Source: a virus
IMG/VR virus record: IMGVR_UViG_3300045988_050566
Strand: one strand, 5' to 3'
DNA: 61,641 bases
Shown: piece by piece, positions 1 to 61,641 of the stretch
Numbering within the stretch: the stretch's first letter is position 1
Layout of the letters: each line of letters opens with the position of its first letter
Translations under genes and position numbers: made by a program
The notes under the pieces: generated by a model
What the model was told of the DNA's origin: nothing
The model's database searches: none
Seen by the model: the letters and a program-made list of their open reading frames with translations, nothing else

Positions 1-99
1 ACTTTTTTGTAAATCCCCGTCCAGCATATTCCATCTGAATTTCGTGTCTCCGGGGGTTAAGAAATGGTCGTCCTCCAACTGGAAACGCCTGTCGTAGTC
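1..99. repeat. 99-bp terminal direct repeat identical to 61543..61641 (circular-assembly overlap; unique genome length 61,542 bp)
   Basis: Both ends read base by base give the same string (acttttttgtaaatcccc...cctgtcgtagtc). A minus-strand reading frame runs continuously across the junction. Confidence 0.95.
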
Positions 100-989
100 G
101 TGTACTGTGTGCCCGTCCGGTTTGAAGTTTACCGGGCTGTCCAAATCCCATTTCAGGAGTAGTGCCCAAAGCTCCGGGTAGTCCTTTCGGAGCTGTCGAA
201 GCTGGTTTACTCCCTGATTGTGGCACATCCAGCACCCGTCCCGGCAGCTCGTTTCGTAGCTGGGCGCGAGTATTCCCTCGTACTTACAGTAGAGGCCACA
301 AAGCCCCTCCTCTATTCCGAACTCGACGAGCGGGGCGCGTTTCCTTTCGTTGAGCTGCCCGAAACGCTTTGGCTCGTCCGCTGCTATGCCGAGGTATTCC
401 ACGATATTTTTACCGCCCCTCGCGGTGGGGCCTCCTAAAAATCTTGTCTTGAGCTTGGTACACCATTGCCCCTTTCTGCGGAGGCTGACTGGGAATCCGT
501 AAATAGTCGATTTTGAGCTTCTTGCACCAACTCCCGATTTGTGCAGGAAAACCTTACGGGCGGGGTCTGGACGTTCTTCTTGAGGGCTGGCTGGCACCAA
601 GGCCCCCACTTGGTCGGGAATCCGAGGATTGTGCCCTGCTGTTGACAGTACCCCCCCCCCGCGTTTTTCGCTTTGCGCTGGGGGACGTGGTAAAACAGCT
701 TCTCATACGTGACCTTTTCGCCGTTCTTCATGGCGCAAAGGTGTTCTACCTCAATCCGATACTTTCGCCAGATGTATTCATCCGCCCGCGCCTTGAACTC
801 GACCATCTTTGGGTGTTCGCCGCGTATGGTGTCGGTCGCCCATACGTCCGTGGTCGTAATCCTGTCGAGCTTGAGGCCTCGGGTGAAAATAACGTCCAGC
901 ATTTTGAGGCTGTCTTTCCCGTGGCTTATTCGGGCGATGTATTGGAGCTGGTCGTTCCCTATGTGGATTTCTTCACCCAAGGCGTTCAC
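1..989 (-). pseudogene. PAPS-reductase-like PP-loop ATPase (IbrA-like) with a broken reading frame; gene wraps the circular junction
   Basis: ORF 435..989 (GTG start) carries the PP-loop motif ISHGKDS. A second minus frame, open from 702 through base 1 and on to a TAG at 61534-61536, carries YGFPVSLRRKGQWCTKLK, IVEYLGIAADEPKR and GCWMCHNQ, typical of the family C-terminus. The overlap zone 435-702 contains a G10 run (C10 on + strand, 651-660). Confidence 0.8.
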
Positions 990-13990: not shown

Positions 13991-14019
13991 TACACAAAAC
14001 GGGGCAAAAATGCTATGAT
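13991..14019 (+). promoter_or_regulatory. candidate repressor-maintenance promoter: TACACA-17-(TGc)TATGAT extended -10
   Basis: Read on the + strand upstream of the RBS GGAGG (14032-14036) and ATG 14045. GGGGCAA motifs at 13919, 13980 and 14001 flank it. Confidence 0.45.
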
Positions 14020-14044
14020 TAAATTTACTGCGGAGGTGCTATCC

Positions 14045-14650
14045 ATGCAAAACTTTTCCAACCGTCTGATTTCCCTGCGTAAAGAGCGGGGCCTCACCCA
14101 AGAGGACTTGGCAAACCTAATCCACAAAAAGCGTTCCACCGTCTCCGGCTACGAGACCGAGGGCAAGGAGCCTGACCTCGATACGGTCTGCTGGCTGGCG
14201 AATTACTTCGACGTGTCCACCGACTACCTGCTGGGCTACTCCGACGAGCGCAACCACGTTGAGCAGGTCTTTTTCAACGACAAGGTGAACTTTGAGCGTC
14301 ACTACAAGAATCTGCCCGCCGAGCTGCGCCCCGTCGTCTCCAAGTGCTTCGACAGCTTCTACCTGCTGCTGTCCCGTGATATGCAGCTCGCCCGGCCTGA
14401 ACGCCTCCGGGTCTACGAGGAGCTGCTTCACACCCTCCAATCCCAGCGGGCGGACATTCGCAAGGCAATCGAGGCCTCCGGCGGTGCTGTCACCGACCCC
14501 GTTGCCCTCTCCGACCTCATGGCTATGCAGGGCCAGCTCAAAAACGCTGTGGCCGCTCTGCTGGACAAGCTCATGCAGGCCGACATGGAAATCGCGTTCA
14601 ACATCAAGAGAGACGAAGCCGCCGGGTACAAAAGCGGGTCGGCAATGTGA
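14045..14650 (+). CDS. CI-like repressor, XRE-family HTH with helical C-terminal domain (201 aa)
   Basis: MQNFSNRLISLRKERGLTQEDLANLIHKKRSTVSGYETEGKEPDLDTVCWLANYFDVSTDYLLG. GGAGGTG 6 nt upstream. The track start 14015 lies inside the -10 box. Confidence 0.85.
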   Translation: MQNFSNRLISLRKERGLTQEDLANLIHKKRSTVSGYETEGKEPDLDTVCWLANYFDVSTDYLLGYSDERNHVEQVFFNDKVNFERHYKNLPAELRPVVSKCFDSFYLLLSRDMQLARPERLRVYEELLHTLQSQRADIRKAIEASGGAVTDPVALSDLMAMQGQLKNAVAALLDKLMQADMEIAFNIKRDEAAGYKSGSAM

Positions 14651-14707
14651 TCTACGTGGACTTTCGCCCCTCCCCGTGAGGGGCGTTTCCTTTGGAGGTG
14701 AATCCCT

Positions 14708-17575: not shown

Positions 17576-17944
17576 TCAGCTCACCTCCATGATGTAGGGT
17601 GTGTACTCGAGGTTGTCCTCGGTGATGATGTCGTTCCATGTCAGCCCCTCGGTGCCGGGCGCGGGGTCGTCGAGGCTCACCGTCTTTATCTGTCTGCTCT
17701 GCTTGCGCTTTTCGTGGCCGACGGCGGAGCGCATCGCGCTCCATGCGATGGTGGTGAACTCGTAGTGGTACAGCTTCGGCTCCCTGAACCATCTCTCTAC
17801 GGTCAGCAGGTAGCGGAATATCACCACGTCGAACCACTCGTCATGCGGGAGCTTCTGCGCCCGGAGGAAACTGCCTACTATCCAAAAGTTGGTCTCTGCA
17901 ACGGCCCTTTCCTCCGGCGTGAGGGGTTTAAGAGCCGACCGCAT
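17576..17944 (-). CDS. hypothetical protein (122 aa), weakly sigma-factor-like
   Basis: ORF track. The G11 run ends 4 nt upstream of the ATG. The sigma-like call is from memory of Tn916 orf7-type proteins only. Confidence 0.6.
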   Translation of the reverse strand: MRSALKPLTPEERAVAETNFWIVGSFLRAQKLPHDEWFDVVIFRYLLTVERWFREPKLYHYEFTTIAWSAMRSAVGHEKRKQSRQIKTVSLDDPAPGTEGLTWNDIITEDNLEYTPYIMEVS

Positions 17945-18630
17945 TCATCCCCCCCCCCCGCGATTCTGCGCGTCGGGTCGAACTCTCTGCCCTCTGCGTA
18001 GCCCTGTCGGTACGCTCCGGCGGAGATGTTGTCCTCTGCGCTGGATTTGAAATGCTCATGCCCGAGGTGCTGCGCGGCCTCTGTGACCTCTTTCGGCATC
18101 ACCAGTACAAGGCCCCATTCCTCCCGGTTCTCCTCTCCCTGCCGCTCGAAAGCTGCGTCGATGCCCCGGACGAAGCCGTAGCCATAGCTGTCGCACTCCT
18201 GCTTGATGAACTTCGAGTAGTAGGCGGTGTAGTCTGCGTACTCGCGCTTGATGTTCTTTATCCCGGCCCGTATGCAGTCCACGGCGTACTTGAATACGGC
18301 TATGCAGATTTCCACGTTGTCCTCGAGGCCGATGAACCCCACGTGCTGCGTCTGCTGGCCGTGGTAGCGTTTTCTGTACCCCTTGCAGCAGTAATTCTCT
18401 CCGATGGTGGCGGAAAGCGGGATAATCCACGGCTCTCGCCTCTTACTGCACGTGATGTCCGTAAGAACGTCCTCGACAGCCTGATTTTCCGTCTCCCGGC
18501 ATTCCCGCTCCGTGAGCTTATGCTCTGCCATGAGCTGCCGGGCCTTGAGTAGGGCGGCCCGCGCCTCTGCCTCTACCGGGCTTTCTGCCAGTGCGAGGAG
18601 CTTCCTGATCTTCTCCTTGTAGTCAACCAT
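17878..18630 (-). CDS. DUF2786-like domain protein (250 aa as written; C-terminus set by a G11 tract)
   Basis: MVDYKEKIRKLLALAESPVEAEARAALLKARQLMAEHKL is the typical DUF2786 N-terminus. The track ORF start (18789) is upstream junk overlapping the previous gene. Confidence 0.7.
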   Translation of the reverse strand: MVDYKEKIRKLLALAESPVEAEARAALLKARQLMAEHKLTERECRETENQAVEDVLTDITCSKRREPWIIPLSATIGENYCCKGYRKRYHGQQTQHVGFIGLEDNVEICIAVFKYAVDCIRAGIKNIKREYADYTAYYSKFIKQECDSYGYGFVRGIDAAFERQGEENREEWGLVLVMPKEVTEAAQHLGHEHFKSSAEDNISAGAYRQGYAEGREFDPTRRIAGGGDECGRLLNPSRRRKGPLQRPTFG

Positions 18631-19204
18631 CTGCCTCAACCTCCCTCCGGGCCTCGTCGATACGCTCCTCAAGGCGGGATTTCCGGGTGTAGCGGTTCGT
18701 GTTCTCCTTGTAGAAGCAGTAGCCATCGAACTGCCAGTAGCCTCCGCCGAGGTCGTGGAACGTGATGTATGTGGGTCTGCTGCCCCCACGCTCGTCCGCT
18801 TCGCTGCTGTACGGCTCCCCGCCCTGCGTGCAAAAGGAAAGCATCAGGACGGGCGGGACGCTGTCTACGAAGTGCTGCACCATGTCGTCGTCCACCTTGT
18901 CTCCGGGGAAACAGTAGTCCTCGAACGAGGGCAGGCCGCTCACCTGCCAGCCCTCGTAGGTCTTGACCGGGTAGCTGTCTGTGATGCGTTTGCGCTCCGC
19001 CTGCACCGTCTCGAGGATTTCGAGCCGCTGCTGCGCCGTGAGCTTCACGTCGTCCCCGTTTCCGCAGGGGAAAGCCTTAATCCCGCAGAGGAGGAGCTGC
19101 ACGTCAACCACGCACGTCGTTACGTACTGGTTCCCTCGAACGATGTCGTATGTGACAGCCTCTCTGCTGTTCTGTGAGCCGCGATAATATACGTACTGCG
19201 ACAT
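18623..19204 (-). CDS. hypothetical protein (193 aa)
   Basis: MSQYVYYRGSQNSREAVTYDIV... after GGAGGGGG. Begins 5 nt after the stop of the upstream gene. Confidence 0.65.
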   Translation of the reverse strand: MSQYVYYRGSQNSREAVTYDIVRGNQYVTTCVVDVQLLLCGIKAFPCGNGDDVKLTAQQRLEILETVQAERKRITDSYPVKTYEGWQVSGLPSFEDYCFPGDKVDDDMVQHFVDSVPPVLMLSFCTQGGEPYSSEADERGGSRPTYITFHDLGGGYWQFDGYCFYKENTNRYTRKSRLEERIDEARREVEADG

Positions 19205-26392: not shown

Positions 26393-26815
26393 TTACCTCC
26401 TCTTGACTTTGATTTTCAATGCGTCTGCGAGCTTTTGCAGTTCCTCCGGCTCCGCCGCAAAGAAGTCCTCGTTGAACAGAATTACCTCCAAGTCCTGCCG
26501 CAGGAAGTGTCCCCAATCCCTTTCCAGCATCTCGATTTCCTCGTCGCTGAACCGCTGCCGCCGCCCCTCCGCGCTGTACCGCTCCCGGTTGCTGTAGGCG
26601 ATGGCGTAGGTCAGTGCGCCGCGCTCAAGCCCCCGCCCGTCGTCGTTCCGGGCAAAGTGCTTTTTCGCGTTCTCGCTGGTGCTGTAGCAGACCTCTCTCC
26701 CGTCCGGCAACACGAGCGAATACCCCTCCGTGTGCAGCTCCGTCCCATAAGGGATGTTCAGCCGCTCCCCGCACAGGGCCAGCTCCTTGTACCTGTGGTG
26801 CGTCACGTAATTCAT
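26393..26815 (-). CDS. hypothetical protein (140 aa) translationally coupled to the RT
   Basis: MNYVTHHRYKELALCGERLNIPYG; ATGA overlap with the RT stop. Confidence 0.6.
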   Translation of the reverse strand: MNYVTHHRYKELALCGERLNIPYGTELHTEGYSLVLPDGREVCYSTSENAKKHFARNDDGRGLERGALTYAIAYSNRERYSAEGRRQRFSDEEIEMLERDWGHFLRQDLEVILFNEDFFAAEPEELQKLADALKIKVKRR

Positions 26816-28068
26816 GCCGCTGCTTCCTCCTCTCTGACTGAGCCGTGCCGCCTGTAAATCCAGCCCGCCTCCGTCTTGGTCGCTTTCATGGTGCATTTGA
26901 ATTTCTTTTTCCGCGCCGACAGCTCCGCCTCGAACAGCCGCACGAACTTCTCGTCCATCGTCCGCAGCGTGTCATAACTGTTGCACCGCAGCGCGTGCGC
27001 CCTCCACGACTGGTAGGACTGAAAAATGTCCTCCGCCGCGAGCTTGCCCTTGTCCAGCCACTCCCGGAAAATTTTAATCTTCCTCCGCATGGCCCGGACG
27101 CTGCTCCTGCTCAACTTCATCGTCACCTTGCCTCCCTCCCGCAGCGTTATCCGCATCTTGAGGAATTTGAAGCTGTGGTGCCGAAACGGGGTTATCCTGC
27201 ATTTCTTCTCGCTGAGTGCAATCCCCATCTCCTCCGCCATCTTGTGCAAGCATCGGTCGATGTCCCGCAGCTCCTCGAGTGAGTTGCTGATTGCGTACCC
27301 GTCGTCCATGTACCTCCCGTACCCGTGTATGCCGCGCACGTCTTTCACGTAATGGTCTATCGGGCTTGCATAGTCCAGCGCGATAATCTGGCTTATCTCG
27401 CTCCCCAGCCCCACGCCGCGCTTGCGCTCCGCCGTCTTGTCCGCCGTTTTCATCCTCTGAAAATCGTCCACAAATTGGCAGAACAGGGCGTAGAGGCGGT
27501 CGTCCATGATTTTCGCCCTCGCTCTCCGCTTGATTTCGTCGTGGGGCAAGCTCGCAAAATACCCCTTGAAGTCGAATTGGTAAATCCCACCCTCTGTCCC
27601 GAACTTCCTGTAGTGGTCTTGAAGATGCTTCTTGAGCCGCTTTAGCTGGAAGTCCATACCCTTGTCCGCAAGGCTCGCGCCGTTGTCATAAATGAAGCTG
27701 CGCGAATATGCCCGCGTCAAAAGGTTACTGCATAGGCACTTCTGAATCGCCCTCTCCTGTATCGGGAGCGCGTCGATGTTCCGTTCTTTCCCGTGTTCAA
27801 TGGTCGTGAAGCTCTGAAAGCCCCGGAACTTCCTTGTGCCGTTCTGTAGTGTCTCATAGGTCTTGAGGCTTTCTGCCAGCAGGTTCGTCTCGAAGTTTAT
27901 CGTTGACGTTTTCCACCTCGCGCCGTTGCAGCAGGCCTTGCCCGCCTTGCAGAGGTTCCCGAACGACATCACCTCGTCGAAGCTCGCGCCTCCGGCCTCC
28001 TGCGCTTTCTGCTGCCTCCGCGCTTTCCGCCGTTGGTATCTCGCCTCGCGCCTTTCGCTGCTGTTCAC
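26812..28068 (-). CDS. DGR-type reverse transcriptase (418 aa from GTG 28068; start uncertain, alternatives ATG 27969 or 28179)
   Basis: Catalytic GYGRYMDDGYAIS (YMDD). GVGLGSEISQIIALDY matches the DGR-RT (I/L)G..xSQ motif. AGGAGG lies 10 nt before the GTG. Sits next to the TR and an Avd-like gene. Confidence 0.85.
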   Translation of the reverse strand: MNSSERREARYQRRKARRQQKAQEAGGASFDEVMSFGNLCKAGKACCNGARWKTSTINFETNLLAESLKTYETLQNGTRKFRGFQSFTTIEHGKERNIDALPIQERAIQKCLCSNLLTRAYSRSFIYDNGASLADKGMDFQLKRLKKHLQDHYRKFGTEGGIYQFDFKGYFASLPHDEIKRRARAKIMDDRLYALFCQFVDDFQRMKTADKTAERKRGVGLGSEISQIIALDYASPIDHYVKDVRGIHGYGRYMDDGYAISNSLEELRDIDRCLHKMAEEMGIALSEKKCRITPFRHHSFKFLKMRITLREGGKVTMKLSRSSVRAMRRKIKIFREWLDKGKLAAEDIFQSYQSWRAHALRCNSYDTLRTMDEKFVRLFEAELSARKKKFKCTMKATKTEAGWIYRRHGSVREEEAAA

Positions 28069-28392
28069 TTTTCTCTTGCCTCCTGTGCCGCCAAGATGCA
28101 GTATCCCACACGTACAGCGACATGGCTCTGCGGGTGGTTTGCAGGGTGCATCACTCCCCGCACCTCTCCCGCCAGCCATGACGGTTTTTTCGTAGCTGCG
28201 TAACGGCTGCTCATGTAACCGGGGCACTCCCGTCAAAATCCCCAGCCATGCAAGAAGCGTCCGGGCCTCCGTATCGTGTGGTAAGTTTAGGATTGAAGCC
28301 CCGTCTCCGGGGTCAGTCTCCAAGGGTCAAGTCCTCCTTTAAGTTTTGGGGCGCGGCTTCGCATTTCGCTACTTGTTCTGGCCCCAGTCTGT

Positions 28393-28526
28393 CCTTAAAT
28401 CCCGGCGCGAAGCCATTCGACCAGTTCGCGTTGTTGTTGTTCGCGCTGCCGTCCGTGTTCACATTGCAGAAGTTGTTCGAGTTCGTCGCATTGACGGAGC
28501 GGAGCCACCAATTGCAGGCGGCGCCG
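28393..28526 (-). repeat. DGR template repeat (TR)
   Basis: 134 bp aligning to VR1 (29116-29249) with 15 mismatches, and to VR2 (60662-60768) with 17 mismatches. All mismatches are at + strand T (coding-strand A). The sense translation is Asn-rich: WWLRSVNATNSNNFCNVNTDGSANNNNANWSNGFAPGFKD. Confidence 0.9.
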
Positions 28527-28547: not shown

Positions 28548-29015
28548 TCACGCTTTCCCAGCCTCCTCCGCCTTGCGGCGGTAGCCGTTCCAACGCTTTT
28601 TGTCGCTCTCCAAGACCGCCCGGAGCCGGGAGAACGCGTTGTTTGCCAGCGTCGTCCACGCTTGGAACGCCTTTTCGTACTCTGCCTTTCCCGCAAAGAA
28701 GTTGTTCCCCGCGTCCACCATCTCATAGCAGAACGTAATCTCTCCGCAAATCGCGTCCGCGCTGCTGCACGCTATCATCAGGTAGCGGTGCCGCAGCTCG
28801 TAGTCGTGTTCGCTCATGTCCTTGTGCAGGTAGATCGCATTCCCCTTGAGGGCGTTGAGGTATATCTCCCTCGCCAGTTCCAGCAGCCCGTTCGTGATGT
28901 CGCGGTAGCTCTTGGGGAACTTCCGCGTCACCCGCACGGTGTACTTGCGCAGCTCCCTCGCGTCCGCGATGAACTGCGCCGCAGCGTCTTTCCTCCGGGA
29001 TTTGTAAACCGACAT
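28548..29015 (-). CDS. avd: Avd-like accessory variability determinant (155 aa)
   Basis: Small basic helical protein (RKFPKSYRDITNGLLELAREIYLNALKGN) between the target gene and the TR, the canonical DGR position. Confidence 0.75.
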   Translation of the reverse strand: MSVYKSRRKDAAAQFIADARELRKYTVRVTRKFPKSYRDITNGLLELAREIYLNALKGNAIYLHKDMSEHDYELRHRYLMIACSSADAICGEITFCYEMVDAGNNFFAGKAEYEKAFQAWTTLANNAFSRLRAVLESDKKRWNGYRRKAEEAGKA

Positions 29016-29059: not shown

Positions 29060-29081
29060 GGCGGGGGCTTTCGCCCCCACC
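29060..29081 (-). promoter_or_regulatory. GC hairpin with GAAA loop 26 nt downstream of VR1 (DGR target-recognition-type stem-loop)
   Basis: Minus strand: GGTGGGGGC-GAAA-GCCCCCGCC (core 6-bp G/C stem). Confidence 0.65.
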
Positions 29082-29107
29082 GCTTCACTTGCCTCCCTGA
29101 TTTTGGA

Positions 29108-30697
29108 TTAGGCAACCTTAAAGCCCGGCGCGAAGCCAAGCGACCAGTACGCGATGGTGTTGCTCGCGCTGCCGACCGTGTCCACATAGCAGAAGTAGTA
29201 CGAGTTCGCCGCATAGACGGAGCGGAGCCACCAATAGCAGGCGGCGCCGGTCGCGTTGTGCTTGTACTTCACCTTGCTGTTGCCGTTCTTGTAGTAGTCA
29301 TACTGCTTCTGGTAGTTCTGCTCCGCGCTGTTCGCGTAGCTGCGCGAGCCGTGTACCTCGAACTCCGAAAGCAGCCAGATTTTGTCCTGCGTCGCCGTGA
29401 CGCAGCTGGCCGTGTTGCTGCCGCCGCCCCGGTTGTCGCTGTACTTGGTGCAGGCCACAATCACGTTCTGCCATTCCGCCGGGAGTGCCGAGAGGAACGC
29501 CGGGCAGATGGTCTGGCGCATATAGCTGCTCTCCCAGCCGCCGGAGTTGGTATTACTGGTGTTCATCACGAATCGGGCGTTCGCGTTGTTGCTGTAATAC
29601 TCGTTGTACCCTGCGTCCACAAAGGCGATGTCCTTGCTGCTCGCGTCCTTGCCGAACTGGAAGTGGATGCTGTTGCCGCCCTCCACGCTGCTGTTGTGGT
29701 TGAATCCGAGGATAAAGGCGTAGTAGGTGCCATTGATCGTCAGCGACCCCACCTTACCGTTTACTGCGATAGGCATCTTGTCGCCCGCGCTCCAAAGGTT
29801 CGCCGCCTGCCCGGACTGGGCGGCCTCCTTGATGGTGGCCGGGTCGTTGTCCTCGAGGGACGGGCTTGCCATCTTCACCGTCACGCTGACGGTCTTGTTG
29901 GCCGGGGCCGTGTGGTTGGTGCCCTCCGCGCACTTGACCGTAATGGTCGCCGTGCCGCTGCCCTTGGCCGTGATGGTGATGGTCGTCCCGCTCACACTCA
30001 CGGTCGCCACGTCCGTCTTGTTGGAGCTGGCCGAAATCACGCCGTCGCCGCTCCGGGTGGCCGTGACCGTCCCGGTGGCGGTGCCGCCGCTCAAGGTGAG
30101 GCTGCTCTTGTTCAGCGTCAGGCTGCCCGCCGCCTTGTTGATTTTCCACGTGATGCTCTTGGCCGTGGTGGTGCCGTCGCTCCACTGGTAGTTCTTGCCC
30201 GGCGTGAATGTGGCCGTGTAGCTGCCCGCATTGGTGCCCGAGTTGGTGCCCCCCAGCGTCATCTTCCCGCTGTCATAGTTGGCCCATGTGGGGGACTGCG
30301 CGCTGCCCGTGTAGGTCAGGCTGCCGCTCTGCGACGGGGTGGCGATGTTCGCCCTCCCAATCGTCCAGTTCACGGTCTTTGCCCCGGTGGTGTCGTCCTC
30401 CCACTTGTACCCCTCTTTCGGGGTGAATGTCACCTGATAGGTGCCCGCGTCGGTCGCGCTCTGCGTCCCGCCGATTTCCAGCGCGTTCGGGTCGTAGTTG
30501 TTCCAGCTCGGGGACTGCGCCTGCCCGTTATAGGTCAGCACGCCGCCCTGCGAGGGAACTGCGCTGATTTTGGTCGTCATTTCCGTAATGGCCTTCTGCG
30601 CTGCCTCTGCGGTCTCTTTGGCCGCCTGCGCAATCTTCCTCACGGCTTCCAGCTCCGCCCCGGTAACGCCCGGGACGTTTACTGCTCCATACGCCAT
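29108..30697 (-). CDS. tail-fibre / receptor-binding protein, DGR target 1 (529 aa)
   Basis: Repeated Ig-like segments (GTYQVTFTPKEGYKW, GSYTATFTPGKNYQW, Big_2-like VATVSVSGTTITITAKGSGTATITV). C-terminus CYWWLRSVYAANSYYFCYVDTVGSASNTIAYWSLGFAPGFKVA contains VR1. Confidence 0.85.
   Translation of the reverse strand: MAYGAVNVPGVTGAELEAVRKIAQAAKETAEAAQKAITEMTTKISAVPSQGGVLTYNGQAQSPSWNNYDPNALEIGGTQSATDAGTYQVTFTPKEGYKWEDDTTGAKTVNWTIGRANIATPSQSGSLTYTGSAQSPTWANYDSGKMTLGGTNSGTNAGSYTATFTPGKNYQWSDGTTTAKSITWKINKAAGSLTLNKSSLTLSGGTATGTVTATRSGDGVISASSNKTDVATVSVSGTTITITAKGSGTATITVKCAEGTNHTAPANKTVSVTVKMASPSLEDNDPATIKEAAQSGQAANLWSAGDKMPIAVNGKVGSLTINGTYYAFILGFNHNSSVEGGNSIHFQFGKDASSKDIAFVDAGYNEYYSNNANARFVMNTSNTNSGGWESSYMRQTICPAFLSALPAEWQNVIVACTKYSDNRGGGSNTASCVTATQDKIWLLSEFEVHGSRSYANSAEQNYQKQYDYYKNGNSKVKYKHNATGAACYWWLRSVYAANSYYFCYVDTVGSASNTIAYWSLGFAPGFKVA
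29116..29249 (-). repeat. DGR variable repeat 1 (VR1), last ~44 codons of the tail-fibre gene
   Basis: See the TR entry. The differences from the TR are only at TR adenines (coding strand). Confidence 0.9.
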
Positions 30698-42860: not shown

Positions 42861-43379
42861 TCATAGCACGACTTTCTTGTACTTGTACGCCCAAAGATAG
42901 CCCCCGGCGCGTTTCTGCTTCCCTCGGAGGCAGGCGTTGATACAAGATACCTTTATCCCCGTGGCCTGCGCTGCCGCGCTCTGGCCGGGGTATTCCGCCA
43001 AGACCTTGAGTGTCGCCGGGTCGATTTGAACTACCGGGGTCTTGCTGCCGTTCTTGGCCGCCGCCCTCGCCGTCCGGCTGCCGTAGTTCGTGTTCTCCTC
43101 TGCGGTCGCCCACTCAAGGTTGCTTGCGCGGTTGTTCTCCGGGTTTTCGTCTCTGTGGTTTACCTGCGGCTACCCCTCCGGGTTCGGGACGAATGCTGTC
43201 GCCACAATCCTGTGCAGCCGGAAAGACTTCCTCACCCCGTTCCTGTCTACCAAGGAAATCTGCATATATCCGTGCTTTTTCCTCGTCGGTGTGATTATCT
43301 TTACCCGCCTTACTCGTCCAAGATTGCTGACCTCCTAAAGCCCCTCATAGCCCAAAATGGGCCGCCAACTTTCCCGCAT
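42861..43379 (-). pseudogene. HNH homing endonuclease (NUMOD4 + HNH + C-terminal HTH-like module) interrupted by two in-frame TAG codons
   Basis: Own translation: MRESWRPILGYEGL*EVSNLGRVRRVKIITPTRKKHGYMQISLVDRNGVRKSFRLHRIVATAFVPNPEG*PQVNHRDENPENNRASNLEWATAEENTNYG...GIKVSCINACLRGKQKRAGGYLWAYKYKK. TAGs at 43335-43337 and 43170-43172. GGGAGGG RBS 6 nt before the ATG at 43379. Confidence 0.8.
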
Positions 43380-43404
43380 AGCACGCCCTCCCGATGGTAT
43401 TCAC

Positions 43405-43432
43405 ATTATACCCCCCCCCCGTCCAAAATCAA
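43405..43432 (-). promoter_or_regulatory. promoter TTGATT-16-TATAAT whose spacer contains a G10 homopolymer
   Basis: Minus strand reads TTGATTttggacGGGGGGGGGGTATAAT (C10 on + strand at 43411-43420), 26 nt upstream of the HNH start codon. Confidence 0.6.
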
Positions 43433-43473
43433 TAGTTTTCGGAAAATGCCCCGATAATCGGCATTTCTCAAAA

Positions 43474-44114
43474 TTACCTCTTGAAATTGACGGTATCGCG
43501 CCTTACGGGTTTCCTGTCCTCCTCAAGCTCCGAGGCAATATAGAGTAGCTGTATCTCCCTCGGCATCTTGTAGAACTCCTCCATGCGGAGGCCGTGCCGC
43601 TGCCAGAGTACGCTCGCCCAGTAGCCGTCAGAGCCGGGAGTGCTTACGAGTTTTTTGCCGCTTCCAGCTCCTCGTCGTCATTGACCGCGCTCGCCAGCCC
43701 GAGGGCCTGCATTACCATGCGGGAAACGTGCTGGTATTCGTCCGGCTTCGGGAATACCTTGAGCGGCATATCCGTCACGTCCACGCAATGGTAGTAGTCC
43801 ATCAGCTCCTTGTCCTTGAGGTTCGGGAACTGCAACGCCTCCACAATCAGGTGGCGGCTGGCTCTCGCGCTGTCCTTTTCGGTTTTCCAAACCACCTCGC
43901 CCATCGCAATCAGGGGGTTGCCCTTTTTGTCGGTCGCCATGCTGCGCTTGCGGTAGGCTTCGTTGATGCGGTTGATTTCCTCCTGCGAAAGCACCTTGAT
44001 TTCCAGCGGGATTACCTCGCCGTTCTCGTCTCTGATGCTGTCGAGGCCGGGGGCGGTGACAATCTCCGGCTCCATGCTGCGCATAAAATACTTGAGGTTC
44101 TTCTTGTCTGCCAT
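43474..44114 (-). CDS. tail assembly chaperone, -1 frameshift-extended product (about 213 aa)
   Basis: After the slip at A_AAA_AAC, the -1 frame reads KLVSTPGSDGYWASVLWQRHGLRMEEFYKMPREIQLLYIASELEEDRKPVRRDTVNFKR, then TAA at 43474-43476. Confidence 0.6.
43644..44114 (-). CDS. tail assembly chaperone, XkdN-like (156 aa, zero-frame product)
   Basis: Position between the tube gene and the tape-measure region. ORF ends ...ELEAAKNS with a slippery heptamer at the last codons. Confidence 0.75.
   Translation of the reverse strand: MADKKNLKYFMRSMEPEIVTAPGLDSIRDENGEVIPLEIKVLSQEEINRINEAYRKRSMATDKKGNPLIAMGEVVWKTEKDSARASRHLIVEALQFPNLKDKELMDYYHCVDVTDMPLKVFPKPDEYQHVSRMVMQALGLASAVNDDEELEAAKNS
43650..43656 (-). 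promoter_or_regulatory. slippery heptamer A_AAA_AAC for programmed -1 frameshifting
   Basis: Minus strand GCG GCA AAA AAC TCG TAA. XXXYYYZ pattern 3 nt before the zero-frame stop, with a protein-like -1 frame after it. Confidence 0.6.
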
Positions 44115-56236: not shown

Positions 56237-57256
56237 TTACTCGTCGAGGCCGAACATTCTGCGGTAGTAGTCTGTCTTGCTCGACAACTCCTCCTGCATC
56301 AAGCCGTAGAAGCTCTGCTTGTTGATTTTCTTGTTGATGCCCGCCACCTGATTTAGGCTTTGGAAGCACCCGCCCGTGCCTATCTGCTTCATCAGCTCCG
56401 TAGGCTCCGGGTTCTTTCCGTTCAGCAGCATACACAGGTTGTAGTCGTTCCCTTTGAAGCCCTCAAGCCCGTCGATGCCGCAGCACGTCATGCTGTCTCC
56501 CATCGCCCGCAGGCGGTTCTCCCCGGCGTAGAATTTGAGGCCGTGGCGGTGGCACTCCGCCCTGATTGCCTCGAAGTGCGGCCGCAGCACGTTCAGCGGG
56601 TAGCAATGGTCGCCCCCGATTTTCACCATGCCCTTTTTGGCCTTGTAGAACTTCATGCCCTCCACCACTACGCCGTAAACGCCTGCGGCGGCCAGCCGGG
56701 GGATATTCGCCATCACGTCCCTAAAGACCTCCGGCATATACGGCTGTACGCGGACAATTACCCGCTGCACTCTGCCCGCGAGCTTTTCCACGATTTTCAG
56801 CCGCTCCTCGTAGGGCGGTGTCCCCGGTTCGAGCGGGTCGTACTTGCTGCACACCATGCTCACCTGCACGACGCAGTTGCATTGCGCCAGCAGGTCGAGG
56901 TATTCCGGGTCTGCCACGAGCCGTCCCTTGGTGCTTACCACGAACGGGTACTTGGTCTCCGCCAGCAGCTTCAAGCACTCGTAGGAGGCGCGGATATTCT
57001 TCTCGATGGGCTGGAATGGGTCGCTCATGCCGCCCCAGTGGATGGGGATATTCCAGTCGCACCACGCCGTCTCGCGGCCCCGCTTTCCCTCGATGAACGA
57101 GCGCAGGGCCTCCACGGTCTCGTCCCTCTGTATCTTTGCGATGTTCTGCTTCTTTTGGGCGAAGCAGTATTTGCACCCGTGGCTGCACCCCTTGTAGGTG
57201 TCGAAGCGCACGGGGAGGTTGCATAGGATAACCTGTGTCCCGCATTTGCAGCCCAT
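56237..57256 (-). CDS. radical SAM protein (SPL/COG1533-like, about 339 aa)
   Basis: CSHGCKYCFA = CxxxCxxC cluster near the N-terminus. TGATG coupling to the upstream ParB-like gene. Confidence 0.8.
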   Translation of the reverse strand: MGCKCGTQVILCNLPVRFDTYKGCSHGCKYCFAQKKQNIAKIQRDETVEALRSFIEGKRGRETAWCDWNIPIHWGGMSDPFQPIEKNIRASYECLKLLAETKYPFVVSTKGRLVADPEYLDLLAQCNCVVQVSMVCSKYDPLEPGTPPYEERLKIVEKLAGRVQRVIVRVQPYMPEVFRDVMANIPRLAAAGVYGVVVEGMKFYKAKKGMVKIGGDHCYPLNVLRPHFEAIRAECHRHGLKFYAGENRLRAMGDSMTCCGIDGLEGFKGNDYNLCMLLNGKNPEPTELMKQIGTGGCFQSLNQVAGINKKINKQSFYGLMQEELSSKTDYYRRMFGLDE

Positions 57257-57825
57257 CAAATCTCCCCCTTTGCTTTCTGTATGATTACCTCCACAAGAGC
57301 CTCTTTCCCGTAGTCCTTGACAAAGGCTTTCAGCTCCTCTTGGTCTGCCTTGTCGAATGTCAGGCTCACGTTGAACAGCTCCTCGATGGCCCGCAGCTCC
57401 TCGTCCACGGTGTCGCCGTCAATCAGGCTGTCGATGTCGTTGGTGAGGCTGTCGATTTCCTGCTGGTTGAAGCCCGTGAGCGTCGCGTCGTCCCCCAGCT
57501 CCGCCAGCAGCGCGCCCAGTTTCTCCTCGTCCCATCCGCCCTCGATTTTGTTGAGGGCCACGTTGAGCTGCCGCTCCTGCATCGGGTCGAGGTCTACCAC
57601 CGACACGTCCACCTCGGTCTCGCCCTCGTTTTCGAGGACGGTGAGCCTCTGGTGGCCGCCCACCACGTTATTCGTCCGCTTATTCCATATCACCGGGATA
57701 AGCAGCCCGTAGGTGGTAATGCTGCGCCGGAGGTTTTCGTACTCCGGGTCTCCGGGGATAAGGTCTATCCGGGGGTTGTACGTCGCCCAGTTGAGGTCGC
57801 TGATTCTCTTTCGCTCTATCTGCAT
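57256..57825 (-). CDS. ParB-like nuclease domain protein (IbrB-like), copy 2 (189 aa)
   Basis: ATYNPRIDLIPGDPEYENLRRSITTYGLLIPVIWNKRTNNVVGGHQRL. Confidence 0.8.
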   Translation of the reverse strand: MQIERKRISDLNWATYNPRIDLIPGDPEYENLRRSITTYGLLIPVIWNKRTNNVVGGHQRLTVLENEGETEVDVSVVDLDPMQERQLNVALNKIEGGWDEEKLGALLAELGDDATLTGFNQQEIDSLTNDIDSLIDGDTVDEELRAIEELFNVSLTFDKADQEELKAFVKDYGKEALVEVIIQKAKGEI

Positions 57826-58415
57826 TACAGCACCCCCTTGACCTTGTTTATGATCGCCGTCGCCAGCTCCACCTTGGCGTTCTCCTTGGTTTTCATGTAC
57901 TCCTCCACCGTCTCCCGCGCTCCCGCCGGGAGGCTGAACGTCATGGTAAAAGTGCTGCGCTCTTTCGCGTCGTCGTAGCCGGAGAAGTCCTCCTCCATCA
58001 GGTCTTTGATGTGGTCGTACTGCATGAGGAGGCTTTGCAGCTCCCAGTCCTCGAAGCCCGTCAAATCCATCGCCCCAGCCTCGTCCAGCTCTTGGAGCAG
58101 GTCGGCCAGCTTGCCGATGTCCCAGCGGCCCTTTACCTTGTTTAGCAGGACGTTGAGGATTTTCTCGTCCCTCTCGTCGAGGTCAACGACGACCGCCTCT
58201 ATCTCCTCCGCGCCCTTTTCCAGCAGTACCTTGAGGCGTTGGTGGCCGCCGACGACGCGCCCGGTGCGCTCGTTCCAAATAATCGGCTCCACATAGCCGA
58301 ACTCCTCTATACTCCGGCGCAGCTTTTGGTACTCTGCGTCCTCCGGCTGCAAATCCCGCCGGGGGTTGTAGTCGGCGGGCTTGAGCTGCGTCGCTTTCAG
58401 CGTCCGTATTTCCAC
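57825..58415 (-). CDS. ParB-like nuclease domain protein (IbrB-like), copy 1 (196 aa, GTG start)
   Basis: ADYNPRRDLQPEDAEYQKLRRSIEEFGYVEPIIWNERTGRVVGGHQRL. GAAAGGAGAGG before the GTG at 58415. Confidence 0.8.
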   Translation of the reverse strand: MEIRTLKATQLKPADYNPRRDLQPEDAEYQKLRRSIEEFGYVEPIIWNERTGRVVGGHQRLKVLLEKGAEEIEAVVVDLDERDEKILNVLLNKVKGRWDIGKLADLLQELDEAGAMDLTGFEDWELQSLLMQYDHIKDLMEEDFSGYDDAKERSTFTMTFSLPAGARETVEEYMKTKENAKVELATAIINKVKGVL

Positions 58416-58457
58416 GTTCCCTCTCCTTTCTGCCCCTTTTCGGGCCGGAAATTCCCT

Positions 58458-58499
58458 AAAAAAATACGCCACCCGTTGGAAATCCCAAACAGGCGGCGT
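58458..58499 (-). terminator. rho-independent terminator after the ArpU-like gene
   Basis: Minus strand: ACGCCGCC...GGTGGCGT stem followed by ATTTTTTT. Confidence 0.6.
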
Positions 58500-59957: not shown

Positions 59958-60259
59958 CACATCAGCCCCATTTCCGTGGCAAGCTGTGCCACCTTGTAGG
60001 CGGTCGCGCTTTTAATGCCCTTGCACTTGCCCTCTGCAAGGGCCGCAACGAGCGTTTTTACCGCCGAGGTGTCCCCGATAGGCCCAGCCGCCTCCGCGCC
60101 ATCCTGCGCCACGCTGGGGCCGCTGGCTACCAGTTCTGTGTCTGCCGCCCGGTGGAACTCCTCGACGAGTTGTTTGTCGGTCATGTTCCGCAGCCGCACC
60201 GCCTCCTTGTGGAGGGCCAGCTCCTCCGGGGTGTATCTGCACTTTCTCTTTCTACTCAT
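59957..60259 (-). CDS. hypothetical protein (100 aa)
   Basis: MSRKRKCRYTPEELALHKEAVRLRNMTDKQLVEEF after GGAGGAAA. Confidence 0.6.
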   Translation of the reverse strand: MSRKRKCRYTPEELALHKEAVRLRNMTDKQLVEEFHRAADTELVASGPSVAQDGAEAAGPIGDTSAVKTLVAALAEGKCKGIKSATAYKVAQLATEMGLM

Positions 60260-60593
60260 GGTCGGTTTCCTCCCCTTTCTTTGGCTCAAACTGCAAGCAG
60301 GCCTTTGTCCTGCGCGTCTTGTACTTGCGCCCCGGCCTGTTTCGGATTGGCAAGGGGCAGAAGCCCCCGTTTTTCGTCGCAGCGTCCCGCTCCCATTTGG
60401 CGCAGTTGCCGCACACCTTTCCGACGATCTCAATCCGCTTTTCCTCTTTCTCGACCGCCCGTAGGATTTTGACCGCCTCCCGCAGGGCCTCCGCATCGTG
60501 CTTAAAAATGCTGTCCGGGTCGTCCGGCGGTATCAGGCTCTCCCGGTCGTCGATTTGGTCGAGTAAGCTGCTGATGATTTCCTCGATTTTCAT
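60252..60593 (-). CDS. hypothetical Cys-containing protein (113 aa)
   Basis: ORF track; CGNCAKW ... FCPLP motifs; RBS AGAGGAGG. Confidence 0.6.
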   Translation of the reverse strand: MKIEEIISSLLDQIDDRESLIPPDDPDSIFKHDAEALREAVKILRAVEKEEKRIEIVGKVCGNCAKWERDAATKNGGFCPLPIRNRPGRKYKTRRTKACLQFEPKKGEETDHE

Positions 60594-60608: not shown

Positions 60609-60634
60609 CTCCCCGGAGCTTTCGCTCCGGGGAG
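60609..60634 (-). promoter_or_regulatory. perfect 11-bp GC-rich hairpin with GAAA loop, 18 nt downstream of VR2
   Basis: Minus strand: CTCCCCGGAGC-GAAA-GCTCCGGGGAG. Confidence 0.7.
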
Positions 60635-60652
60635 GTTTTCTGTGATGTTGGA

Positions 60653-61521
60653 TTAGATGTCAAAGCCCGGCGCGAAGCCACTCGACCAGCCCGCGCCGTA
60701 GTAGCCCTGCCGTCCGTGCCCACACTGCAGAAGTGGTACGAGTACGTCGCATAGACGGAGCGGAGCCAGTAGGGGTACGTCCCCTCGCTCCCGCACTCTT
60801 TCACACGGTCGCGCTCGCGCTTGAAGATGGGGAGCTGGAAGCTGTCGTCGATGTCTTTCCAGTACCCCTCCTCCGAGGGGCCGAACACATCTGTCGCGGA
60901 AAGAAGCCACAAGGGGTCTGCGTACTCGACGCGCTCGCCGTCGATTTCCTCCACAATCTTGCGGGGTTTGATGATGGCCTGCCACTCCGGGCTGATGTGA
61001 GGCCAGATGTCCTCAAGTACGTGAAGCCGTCCCTTGCTCTTGCAGTAGCCGCCCTTGTTGGTGGCCTCGTCGTTCATGGCCGCCTCGTCCCAGCAGTTCT
61101 TGAACACAAACCGGGCCGTATTCGGGCTGCTGTATGCGCAAACGACGGTGACGCTCCCGCCTGTATCGAGGGGAATATCAATCTCGTCGAAAGGCGAAAC
61201 AACCTCGTCCACGTTGCCCTCCTCGACGGCGGTTTTGAGGTCGTCCGGGCAAATGCTATCGCTCACCACAATGCGGAAATTGCAGAGCTGCGCGTCGTGG
61301 GTCTCTCCCTTGTCTGCCTGCTCGGTGTCATTCTTGTTTCCGACCGCTATGGTCGCGCCCGCGTGCGCGTTCACAATCAGCGGCGCGTCCGGCTGCCCGG
61401 TCTTGTCGAGGATGGATTTCAGCAGCTCCTCGTTGATGTAGTCGGCCCCCATGATCTCCACGGTGGTCTCTGCGTTGTAGTCGCCTGCGGTGTTGGTGCG
61501 CTTGATTTTGATGTCTGCCAT
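60653..61521 (-). pseudogene. DGR target 2: unknown-function protein with C-terminal VR; frame broken inside the VR by a 4-nt deletion (intact length would be about 290 aa)
   Basis: The ORF from ATG 61521 reads ...GTYPYWLRSVYATYSYHFCSVGTDGR and then drifts out of frame. The adjacent frame (track ORF 60653..60985) ends QGYYGAGWSSGFAPGFDI-TAA, matching the VR1 and TR endings. Confidence 0.8.
60662..60768 (-). repeat. DGR variable repeat 2 (VR2)
   Basis: Aligns to TR 28397-28507 with 17 substitutions, all at TR + strand T (coding A), plus a 4-nt gap opposite TR 28443-28446. Confidence 0.85.
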
Positions 61522-61533
61522 GATGGTCTCCTC

Positions 61534-61641
61534 CTAAAAAAGACTTTTTTGTAAATCCCCGTCCAGCATATTCCATCTGAATTTCGTGTCTCCGGGGGTT
61601 AAGAAATGGTCGTCCTCCAACTGGAAACGCCTGTCGTAGTC
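61534..61641 (-). pseudogene. 3' end of the PAPS-reductase-like gene (continuation of 1..989 across the junction; stop TAG 61534-61536)
   Basis: Own translation across the junction: ...FLTPGDTKFRWNMLDGDLQKSLF-TAG. The stop abuts the RBS of the next gene. Confidence 0.8.
61543..61641. repeat. second copy of the 99-bp terminal overlap (identical to 1..99)
   Basis: Direct string comparison. Confidence 0.95.

Follow-up and report, generated by a model that had tools for sequence, protein, structure and literature searches.

One DGR with two target genes, the second frameshifted within its variable repeat, in a temperate tailed phage

A single diversity-generating retroelement (DGR) serves two target genes in the phage genome described here. 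One variable repeat (VR1) is adjacent to the DGR and, judged from its sequence, a second (VR2) is a genuine non-adjacent repeat of the same DGR. VR2 lacks 4 nt in this genome, and its gene is left in two frames. We consider it likely that this VR2 is a null allele that arose by homing, and that the lesion is transient and repairable.

The phage genome and its DGR

The window, by which we mean the whole 61,641-nt stretch of DNA analyzed, carries an exact 99-bp terminal direct repeat, so that the genome is a circle of 61,542 bp. It is the complete genome of a temperate tailed phage, with a serine integrase and a cI-like repressor as temperate markers. Relatives of the phage were binned with Oscillibacter/Oscillospiraceae MAGs, and the hosts of these relatives are gut Oscillospiraceae. 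No close named relative was found by DNA or protein in the phage collection searched, and no nucleotide similarity to deposited Faecalibacterium phages was detectable.

The DGR and its adjacent target were located as follows, all on the minus strand:

26812–28323 (−): DGR reverse transcriptase (RT) ORF (Pfam RVT_1, E 2e-12)
28142–28386 (−): structured RNA that separates TR from the RT catalytic domain (Rfam RF03077, RT-2 RNA)
28397–28507 (−): template repeat (TR), 111 nt, with 29 adenines; read in the VR frame, it has 12 codons for Asn (AAC/AAT)
28548–29015 (−): accessory variability determinant (Avd)-like gene of 155 aa, with VR1 on one side and TR on the other (by size, position and a weak PHROG match)
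29060–29081 (−): hairpin that follows VR1, with a GAAA loop on a 9-bp stem that includes one G-T pair
29108–30697 (−): large DGR target, 529 aa, Ig-like repeats and C-terminal DUF6273
29120–29230 (−): VR1, adjacent variable repeat, 3'-terminal in the large target gene (alignment to TR)

The RT translation carries the YMDD and LGSEISQ motifs of DGR-type RTs and is 96–97% identical to the RTs of relatives. The listed TTG start of this ORF is probably too early, and a GTG at 28068, preceded by GGAGG, is the likelier start. The RF03077 match is full-length (76.2 bits versus a gathering score of 40, E 1.4e-15), and its position suggests that this RNA is the equivalent of the BPP-1 spacer RNA. For the Avd-like ORF, the sole match was to the PHROG “Avd protein of DGR” (weak, E 5e-4), with no match in Pfam or NCBIfam. 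VR1 differs from TR at 17 positions, all 17 of them TR adenines. The large target gene sits at the end of the tail/baseplate block, and in one relative (L036) the stem of the VR1 hairpin shows a compensatory change.

A second, non-adjacent variable repeat

The second target lies elsewhere on the circle. Its features were placed as follows:

60609–60634 (−): hairpin downstream of VR2, 11-bp stem CTCCCCGGAGC/GCTCCGGGGAG, GAAA loop on the sense strand (DNA fold z = −3.95)
60643–60656 (−): motif CTAATCCAACATCA, which includes the stop codon of the small target
60653–61521 (−): small DGR target gene, 290 aa when intact, in two frames here (Pfam DUF6273)
60662–60768 (−): VR2, second non-adjacent variable repeat, 107 nt instead of 111 (alignment to TR)
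60706–60707 (−): junction of the 4-nt deletion, opposite TR 28442–28446 (CGCG/GCGC)

A sequence-only reading of this DNA had aligned 60662–60768 to TR 28397–28507 with 17 substitutions, all at TR adenines, and both the coordinates and the count were reproduced. The substitutions comprise 8 A>G, 5 A>T and 4 A>C, in addition to the 4-nt gap. Note that the 17/17 count was obtained with the gap placed opposite TR CGCG/GCGC (28442–28446); an unconstrained aligner moves the gap and returns one apparent C>G, which is an ambiguity of gap placement and not a real non-A change. Non-adenine substitutions, which the same reading had named as an argument against templating, are thus absent. With 29 A among the 107 aligned TR positions, the chance of 17/17 at A is ∼2e-10.

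Relatives add two further lines of evidence. In four of them, TR, VR1 and VR2 share lineage-specific non-A changes, and comparison of TR with VR in these four gives only 0–1 non-A changes. Among 47 homologues, the variable residues of the protein are exactly the 12 TR Asn codons, with the consensus ...WLRSVxATxSxxFCxVxTDGSAxxxxAxWSxGFAPGFDI (x, TR Asn codons). Over 25 distinct VR2 alleles, A columns have a mean diversity of 0.47, against 0.08 for non-A columns. Because the differences are confined to adenines, because TR, VR1 and VR2 change together and because the protein varies only at Asn codons, VR2 is, as had been proposed, a TR-templated repeat and not an ordinary paralogous stretch. The DUF6273 domains of the large and small targets are themselves paralogous and 34% identical (E 3e-18). 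A strict 30-nt VR pattern, which was too specific, matched only 3 stretches in IMG/VR.

The distance between VR2 and the RT is 32.3 kb one way round the circle and 27.6 kb the other way, in line with the earlier estimate of about 30 kb in either direction. An independent DGR acting on VR2 was considered and rejected: among scanned ORFs, RVT_1 was found only in 26812–28323, and the GC-rich 3' anchor GGCTTCGCGCCGGG, common to TR, VR1 and VR2, occurs in the window at these three places only.

DGR targets are reported to carry a hairpin with a 7–10 bp GC stem and a GRNA loop, 4–34 bp from the VR (PMC3240598). VR2 ends in the GC-rich GGCTTCGCGCCGGG and is then followed, as in that rule, by a GAAA-loop hairpin. 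This hairpin is GC-rich, lies 27 nt downstream of VR2 and is kept in all relatives examined. A GAAA-loop hairpin is present after both VRs and absent after TR. The same holds for the motif CTAATCCAACATCA, which has a near-identical counterpart, CTAATCCAAAATCA, at 29098–29111 beside VR1 and is absent after TR. The VR2 hairpin was also considered as a sense-strand terminator; this was rejected, as its T-run is on the antisense side with none on the sense strand. Terminator-like sites are not above chance in number.

The 4-nt deletion and its consequences

On the coding strand the deletion junction lies directly 5' of the (AAC)4 run of TR. The gap shifts the ORF that starts at 61521 out of frame 20 codons before the normal end, after which ...FCSVGTDG is followed by out-of-frame sequence to a stop at 60502, for a total of 339 aa. 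The conserved ending GYYGAGWSSGFAPGFDI, with its stop at 60653–60655, is in the neighbouring frame. With the 4 nt put back, the gene has 873 nt and codes for 290 aa, which is the exact length of intact homologues, and the stop codon of the restored frame lies 6 nt from the end of VR2. The earlier description of the break, of the displaced ending and of a protein of about 290 aa (873 nt) on repair therefore stands. The 339-aa read-through ORF also conceals where the next gene (113 aa, 60252–60593) starts. In annotation pipelines a VR frameshift can thus make a read-through ORF that hides the following gene.

All 20 normal VR2 alleles taken from relatives are 111 nt (20/20), and in more than 100 relatives the protein of this locus is intact at 290 aa, including the closest ones (95–96% identical). 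The comparison with related genomes that had been recommended as a check thus returned both intact homologues and, as described below, other VR2 indel alleles. The remaining ORF is ∼96% identical to an intact homologue (P0001) and has no further lesion, in support of a recent deletion. The −4 deletion is specific to this genotype, and the microhomology at the site of loss is only 1 nt. Programmed frameshifting was considered and rejected: no slippery heptamer was seen by eye at the junction, and relatives use one frame.

Recurrent indels in VR2

Other indels were found in the VR2 of relatives: −1 in L052, which is from an independent sample (the −1 allele is carried by ERR14001418); +3 in L009, in L010/L062, in L053 and in the homologue P0149; and a frameshift in the homologue P0216. 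With the −4 allele included, there are at least seven independent indel alleles within one 111-nt segment. Of the six that could be placed, five (the −4 and four +3 alleles) map within the (AAC)4 run or next to it, and the −1 maps to another AAC codon of TR. Placement was read from DNA or protein; P0216 was read by protein only, and its normal frame stops inside the (AAC)4 codons. Among ∼190 homologues, no comparable frameshifts were seen in the gene outside VR2 (760 nt).

Length differences between TR and VR have been reported in 7% of DGRs; 11 of these 25 cases shift the frame and 74% adjoin AAC (PMC5758913). Frameshifting TR/VR indels are known in 11 of 372 DGRs (Wu et al. 2018, PMC5758913). 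According to the same paper, phage DGRs commonly have non-adjacent targets at distances of up to 50 kb. A VR reporter with an 18-nt deletion is restored by a DGR (PMC12875486).

Origin and fate of the deletion

The mechanism that we favor would run as follows. TR RNA would be reverse-transcribed with errors at adenines, and the cDNA would replace either VR1 or VR2, the latter being recognized in trans through its own cis elements, namely the TR-like GC-rich 3' end and the GAAA-loop hairpin. One such event would have removed 4 nt from VR2 at the 5' border of the (AAC)4 run, most likely through a slip or an imprecise cDNA join in retrohoming. The outcome would be an allele without the conserved ...AxWSxGFAPGFDI end of the domain, which we infer to be null, and the next homing event should overwrite the deletion. 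Since the deletion is inside the VR and the flanking TR homology, the hairpin and the DGR genes are intact, the lesion is expected to be transient, with no decaying pseudogene. That the deletion arose during homing and that homing could repair it are both points that we infer. Of three causes proposed earlier (mis-assembly, an inactivated second target, and an indel as by-product of homing), mis-assembly is the least likely, as the same allele is present in three sources; the other two are not alternatives and probably both apply.

The broken frame could instead be an assembly artefact or a minority variant, with VR2 intact but heterogeneous in the population and the assembler having taken a wrong or rare path. 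The assembly does come from a metagenome, its 99-bp terminal repeat is a typical k=99 de Bruijn leftover on a circular contig, and a near-identical contig (L003) bears a k99 name. The homopolymer at 651–660 varies (10 versus 11 C) between otherwise identical assemblies, and three short contigs (P0157, P0167 and P0189) run chimera-like from a VR2-type gene into the 3' flank of TR. However, the same deletion with the same flanking A-substitutions occurs in JGI/IMG, ENA and Logan, under two differently named contigs in ENA, and the 339-aa product is identical in 3 contigs from these three sources. The ENA assemblies are ERZ27260691 and ERZ28662140, and SAMEA3646736 is a source sample. The three assemblies may share one sample, so that reproducibility should be considered to be across pipelines and not necessarily across samples. 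Presence in all three makes a pure assembler error unlikely. To pass through the deletion, a de Bruijn path should also require junction-spanning k-mers, in which case reads with the junction would have to exist. Finally, both the VR1 and VR2 alleles are identical in all copies, which argues for a dominant clonal genotype and not a heterogeneous bubble. An exact search of JGI metagenome contigs for the −4 allele gave no match. Taken together, we regard an artefact or minority variant as unlikely.

A lesion that is real might still owe nothing to retrohoming and be an ordinary error of replication or repair, which drift then fixed in a lysogen clone in the absence of selection on phage genes. 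The phage is temperate, and a neighbouring 329-aa gene is likewise out of frame in the window. The 4 nt were lost from a short GC-rich CGCG stretch and are no 3-nt AAC unit, and a 4-nt loss with 1-nt microhomology differs from classic 3-nt AAC slippage. Against such an origin stand the number of independent indel alleles confined to one VR, the position of five of six at the (AAC)4 run and of the remaining one at another AAC codon, and the lack of comparable frameshifts in the rest of the gene. AAC-associated clustering is, moreover, the signature reported for DGR-associated indels (PMC5758913). An ordinary error is thus improbable, and an origin in homing is retained as the preferred reading. 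Permanent loss of the second target, with the gene a decaying pseudogene, is very improbable: the frame is broken and the ORF lacks the conserved C-terminus, but there is a single 4-nt deletion with no further lesion in 270 codons and no lost functional element, the sequence remains close to that of an intact relative, the closest relatives are themselves intact, and the hairpin, GC-rich 3' end, two-sided TR homology, RT, spacer RNA and TR are all in place.

The small target protein

The sequence-only reading had seen no motif in the N-terminal ∼240 aa. This did not hold: Pfam DUF6273 covers aa 145–275 (E 4e-13), and a conserved core begins near aa 80. The search with the small target returned 771 database homologues, and clusters of related proteins at 90% identity hold from hundreds to 10,526 sequence variants. 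When the N-terminal 140 aa were compared with 1.84 billion representatives, 31 matches were obtained, all of similar size and most aligning only from about residue 60–90 on, where the conserved core starts; no outside homologue of this part was found among these representatives. PHROGs gave only weak matches to two families of unknown function, and NCBIfam and PADLOC gave none. No signal peptide or membrane segment was obvious by eye.

AlphaFold models built from alignments of 47 and 74 homologues had pLDDT values of 51 and 59. They were confident only at aa 90–230, with the VR region below 50. Foldseek found nothing with E <1 in the PDB, and its sole match in BFVD was another DUF6273 protein (E 3e-5). 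A profile search of PDB sequences gave no match. The putative C-type-lectin fold of DUF6273 is taken from published models (PMC10743442; bioRxiv 10.1101/2024.10.15.618418).

The small-target gene has genes for replication, recombination and DNA modification as neighbours, with the lysogeny switch upstream of it and RecU and the packaging genes downstream. This bears out the earlier placement of VR2 beside regulatory and recombination genes and away from the tail module. Homologues have a comparable position in the four further phages sampled, namely L001 (a 60-kb relative), a 44-kb phage, a 52-kb phage and Dulem virus 34.

Comparison with known systems

Both the two-target architecture with a small DUF6273 target and frameshifting indels that adjoin AAC have already been described. 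In Toutatisvirus (FP_Toutatis; bioRxiv 10.1101/2024.10.15.618418), as in the Lelie phage and the CP11 prophage (PMC11792537), one RT, Avd and TR serve two targets. All three have a large adjacent target with Ig/Hoc-like repeats and DUF6273, and a small second target consisting of a DUF6273 domain alone with a C-terminal VR. The Toutatisvirus small target is 17.5 kb from TR, is of unknown function and is a core gene of its lineage (bioRxiv 10.1101/2024.10.15.618418). The CP11 genome is ∼36 kb, versus 61.5 kb here. The present phage differs from these two-target Faecalibacterium phages in that VR2 and the RT are ∼28–32 kb apart, the small target is frameshifted and relatives of the phage were binned with Oscillibacter/Oscillospiraceae. 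When P0001 was searched with tblastn against 50,697 phage records, no Faecalibacterium phage record matched, and the best match was Dulem virus 34 (46% identity over aa 86–290). On these comparisons the small target shares the architecture of the Toutatis, Lelie and CP11 small targets and belongs to a different orthologous group.

The gut phages nd4 and nd12 have a “tentaclin” and Mtd-like DUF6273 targets (PMC10743442). The VR of the tentaclins is in the N-terminal part, whereas both VRs here are C-terminal, and the sole similarity to nd4 covers 173 nt at another site in the early region. With the Bordetella phage BPP-1 the present DGR shares adenine-specific transfer from TR to VR, the order Avd-TR-RT (with an Avd-like gene here), a YMDD RT, a GC-rich VR 3' end and a downstream GC-rich hairpin with a GAAA loop (PMC3240598). 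BPP-1 has one adjacent tail-fibre target (Mtd); here there are two, one of them ∼30 kb away in the early block, and the stem at VR2 is 11 bp, 27 nt from the repeat. The cases of Wu et al. 2018 (PMC5758913) are alike in that an indel lies beside an AAC run and the targets of one DGR differ, here with VR1 clean and VR2 bearing the indel. The present case differs in that the shift removes the conserved end of the scaffold and enters the next gene. The frameshifted VR2 has the appearance of a null allele rather than of extra diversity.

Biological meaning

The position of the small target in the early block, here and in the four other sampled phages, agrees poorly with the common view of phage DGR targets as receptor-binding tail proteins. 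A tentative and rather unlikely proposal, taken as a whole, is that it is an early-expressed intracellular binding protein diversified by the DGR, and not a receptor-binding virion protein, and that frameshift indels made and erased by the DGR act as a reversible on/off switch of the gene. If it is an intracellular binder, one example of its role would be the capture of variable host defence or takeover factors. The small target is a concrete and testable protein, and its place in the early block makes it a useful lead. The phage and its relatives add a well-documented lineage to the known class of two-target gut-phage DGRs and show, allele by allele and within one protein family, diversification that yields both in-frame and frameshifting indels in or beside an AAC run.

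Template and variable repeats

The template repeat (TR) and the two variable repeats (VR1, in the large target, and VR2, in the small target) of the diversity-generating retroelement (DGR) were read and aligned on the coding strand.

28397-28507, minus (coding) strand, TR, 111 nt
29120-29230, minus (coding) strand, VR1, 111 nt
60662-60768, minus (coding) strand, VR2, 107 nt

With the 4-nt gap of VR2 set opposite TR CGCG/GCGC (28442-28446), realignment upheld the 17 substitutions of the sequence-only reading, 17/17 at TR adenines (8 A>G, 5 A>T, 4 A>C). Given 29 adenines in 107 aligned TR positions, the probability of this by chance is ~2e-10. A free aligner relocates the gap and returns one apparent C>G, which is an ambiguity of placement. 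VR1 also differs from TR at 17 positions, all adenines.

The window carries an exact 99-bp direct terminal repeat (1-99 and 61543-61641). Since a de Bruijn assembler with k=99 leaves a repeat of this length on a circular contig, the genome is a 61,542-bp circle; the contig name of the near-identical genome L003 includes k99, and one gene crosses the window junction (minus; 882..1 + 61641..61534). On this circle VR2 lies 27.6 or 32.3 kb from the reverse transcriptase (RT), as the earlier estimate of about 30 kb either way had it.

Retroelement components and cis elements

Judged from the following features, the retroelement appears complete.

26812-28323, minus strand, RT ORF with RVT_1 domain and YMDD and LGSEISQ motifs
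28142-28386, minus strand, RT-2 RNA (Rfam RF03077), full-length match, 76 bits vs a gathering score of 40
29060-29081, minus strand, VR1 hairpin, 9-bp stem, GAAA loop
60609-60634, minus strand, VR2 hairpin, 11-bp stem, GAAA loop, 27 nt after VR2

The RF03077 match, the only Rfam match in the window, fills the gap from TR to the catalytic domain of RT and extends over about the first 60 codons of the RT ORF as listed; because the RNA occupies this space, RT probably starts at GTG 28068, preceded by GGAGG. A 155-aa ORF between VR1 and TR gave a weak PHROG match to “Avd protein of DGR” (E 5e-4). VR1 and VR2 have like 3′ ends (GGCTTCGCGCCGGG-CTTT), each followed by the motif CTAATCCAAnATCA and then by the GC-rich hairpin; neither motif nor hairpin was found downstream of TR. 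The VR2 hairpin is kept in every relative examined, and in the related genome L036 a compensatory change is present in the stem of the VR1 hairpin. These features match the target-recognition element defined experimentally in BPP-1 and other phage DGRs, a GC stem of 7-10 bp with a GRNA loop, 4-34 bp from the VR (PMC3240598). An ordinary terminator was ruled out for the VR2 hairpin, because no T-run follows it on the sense strand.

Templating of VR2 in related genomes

Protein searches with the restored sequence (the small target with the four missing nucleotides put back) gave 771 matches, more than 100 of them full-length and with identities of up to 96%; 87 of the first 120 are exactly 290 aa long. 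Many sit on 56-61 kb contigs, and the comparison with related genomes suggested by the sequence-only reading found the intact 290-aa gene at the same locus. The consensus of 47 homologues is ...WLRSVxATxSxxFCxVxTDGSAxxxxAxWSxGFAPGFDI, and its 12 variable positions coincide exactly with the Asn codons (AAC/AAT) of TR, also 12 in number. Concerted change was assessed in four IMG/VR genomes for which the RT locus and the VR2 locus were both available. In all four, lineage-specific non-adenine changes are common to TR, VR1 and VR2 (for example, TTTAGGCTCGTC in UViG_3300045988_025741), and, with 0-1 exceptions, each VR departs from the TR of its own genome solely at adenines. Continued templating by TR is the sole process that gives this pattern. 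Among 25 distinct VR2 alleles, column diversity averages 0.47 where TR has an adenine and 0.08 at the remaining columns; non-adenine differences mostly reflect differences between the lineages' own TRs. Homologue clusters at 90% identity contain from hundreds to 10,526 sequence variants. VR2 is a real, TR-templated DGR target, as first proposed.

Three 397-aa homologous proteins from a related lineage (P0157, P0167 and P0189, on short contigs in ENA and Logan) start as a full small-target-like protein, end in TR-like sequence that is unmutated and all-Asn, and read on into the spacer between TR and RT; P0157 is diversified in the 5′ half and TR-like in the 3′ half. Either the assembler joined chimeras across the VR/TR repeat, or these are natural recombinants of VR2 and TR.

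The 4-nt deletion and other indel alleles

The ORF from 61521 leaves the conserved frame after ...FCSVGTDG and runs to 60502 (339 aa), while the proper ending, GYYGAGWSSGFAPGFDI-stop, lies in the neighbouring frame (stop at 60653-60655). Restoration gives 873 nt and 290 aa, so the description made from the sequence alone holds. All 20 normal VR2 alleles are 111 nt long, and the 107-nt VR2 is therefore the derived state. The shifted ORF lacks the invariant ...AxWSxGFAPGFDI domain end, crosses the hairpin and overlaps the conserved 113-aa gene just downstream of VR2 (60252-60593, minus). Gene callers consequently drop that gene, which is uncalled in both frameshift-bearing public assemblies (L003, L004) and called in intact-VR2 relatives. 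The deletion would be a null allele. A decaying pseudogene was ruled out: the 270 upstream codons are otherwise undamaged and all cis and trans components are intact, which indicates a recent lesion.

Mis-assembly had been offered as one explanation of the gap. The exact 339-aa product occurs on three contigs and was recorded from JGI/IMG, ENA and Logan; contigs carrying it include ENA ERZ27260691 k99_119540 (61,642 bp) and ERZ28662140 ZEEV15-1_SAMEA3646736 scaffold_293 (61,605 bp). The exact VR1 protein of the window was found in the same sources, and over 11 kb the copies match the window at 100% identity, the sole difference being homopolymer length; a single genotype was thus assembled alike by several pipelines. 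A pure artefact is unlikely on this account, and also because a de Bruijn assembler should need spanning reads to produce the junction. The assemblies may all derive from one sample, and the allele could be a minority variant.

The explanation that indels are a by-product of homing is supported by further alleles in relatives; the VR2 indel is not a one-off.

Genome L052 (independent sample ERR14001418), −1 nt at an AAC codon, giving a 266-aa product
Protein P0216 (295-aa lineage, known from the protein alone), frameshift within or just after the AAC-run codons
L009, L010/L062, L053 and P0149, four independent alleles, +3 nt, a fifth AAC-derived codon

Frameshift alleles are rare, since none occurred in the unbiased IMG/VR, JGI metagenome and GTDB sets. 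The deletion in the window lies at the 5′ edge of an (AAC)4 run, in agreement with a survey of 372 DGRs in which TR and VR differed in length in 7% of cases, 11/25 of these frameshifting and 74% adjoining AAC, and in which two targets of one DGR were often unlike in indel pattern (PMC5758913). A reconstituted BPP-1 DGR repairs an 18-nt deletion in a VR reporter (PMC12875486); by analogy, the next homing event could repair the 4-nt deletion.

The small target protein

The N-terminal ~240 aa, previously described as having no recognizable motif, in fact include most of a Pfam DUF6273 domain (aa 145-275, E 4e-13) and a conserved core that begins near aa 80 in comparisons with diverged homologues of 271-430 aa. 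The large target also ends in DUF6273 (34% identity to that of the small target, E 3e-18). The start, MADIKIK..., is conserved solely among the closer 281-291-aa relatives, aa 40-85 form a variable, low-confidence linker, and the N-termini of more distant lineages are unrelated. The proposed remote homology search, performed with residues 1-140 against 1.84 billion cluster representatives, returned just 31 matches, to proteins of similar size, most aligning from about residue 60-90 on, where the core starts. Two structure predictions were of poor quality, and Foldseek matched only another DUF6273 protein; a C-type-lectin fold would be expected from the literature on DUF6273 (PMC10743442; bioRxiv 10.1101/2024.10.15.618418). 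Inspection by eye revealed no obvious signal peptide or membrane segment.

Genomic context

A lysogeny module encoding a cI-like HTH_3 repressor (211 aa) and a large serine recombinase (541 aa) occupies 14015-16333 (plus), and the phage is temperate. Nearly all other genes are on the minus strand, in the following order.

SbcCD-like genes, DnaC-like loader, methylase-like gene
MazF-like protein, MazG-like protein, small ORFs
329-aa SspD/PAPS-reductase-like protein
Small target
Small ORFs, RecU, HTH protein, two ParB-N proteins, radical-SAM protein
Terminase, portal, head and tail genes (tape measure, baseplate J)
Large target, putative Avd, TR, RT, endolysin

This order agrees with the placement first reported, near the PAPS-reductase-like and regulatory/recombination genes and away from the tail module. 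The early block is rich in accessory genes (2090-3109, 1381-2076, 57256-58472 and 56237-57259, all minus), encoding a protein with a MazF/PemK-like domain, a MazG-like NTP pyrophosphohydrolase, two ParB-N proteins whose matches include the N-terminal region of type II methyltransferase models, and a radical-SAM protein.

The SspD/PAPS-reductase-like gene, which crosses the window junction and lies directly upstream of the small target, contains a poly-G run (651-660, C10 on the plus strand) whose length varies among near-identical genomes.

Window, 10, gene out of frame
L003, 11, gene intact, 329 aa
L004, 11, gene cut by contig end
L005, 8, gene intact, 328 aa
L052, 9, out of frame, split 189 + 136 aa

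Either the tract is phase-variable, or the variation comes from an error in sequencing or assembling the poly-G run. Both this gene and the VR2 gene are frameshifted in the window and in L052. Other runs are C11 at 17949-17959, near the 3′ end of a DUF2786/DUF7168 gene (17878-18789), C10 at 43411-43420, within 43113-43644, which has no minus-strand ORF of at least 50 aa, and G8 at 4576-4583. The window has three G/C runs of at least 10, where base composition would predict ~0.7.

In the phages sampled outside the lineage (L054, 44 kb; L055, 52 kb; Dulem virus 34), the homologue lies in an early replication/DNA-modification block, just upstream of Rep/HD/RecU in two and upstream of a rep gene in the third; in L055 it is preceded by cro-like regulators and followed by a gene for a sigma-70-r4-like protein. 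Early-block position is by itself insufficient to call the small target non-structural.

Comparison with known systems

In Faecalibacterium phages a single DGR has been described that serves two DUF6273 targets, a large, Ig/Hoc-like one adjacent to it and a small one; in Toutatisvirus the second VR lies 17.5 kb from TR, in a core gene (bioRxiv 10.1101/2024.10.15.618418). The window shares this two-target architecture, and gut phages nd4 and nd12 provide another example. Its DNA matched neither Toutatisvirus or other Faecalibacterium phages nor nd4 or nd12 as a close relative, tblastn of the small target matched no Faecalibacterium phage, and homologues were binned with Oscillibacter/Oscillospiraceae MAGs. 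What the window carries is a system of this kind in another lineage. Overall, the earlier observation is confirmed and its interpretation supported. For the field, a non-adjacent second target bearing a VR indel of a documented type is nothing unusual; what deserves follow-up is the conserved location of the small target in the early region, together with the recurrent VR2 indel alleles, which can probably be repaired.
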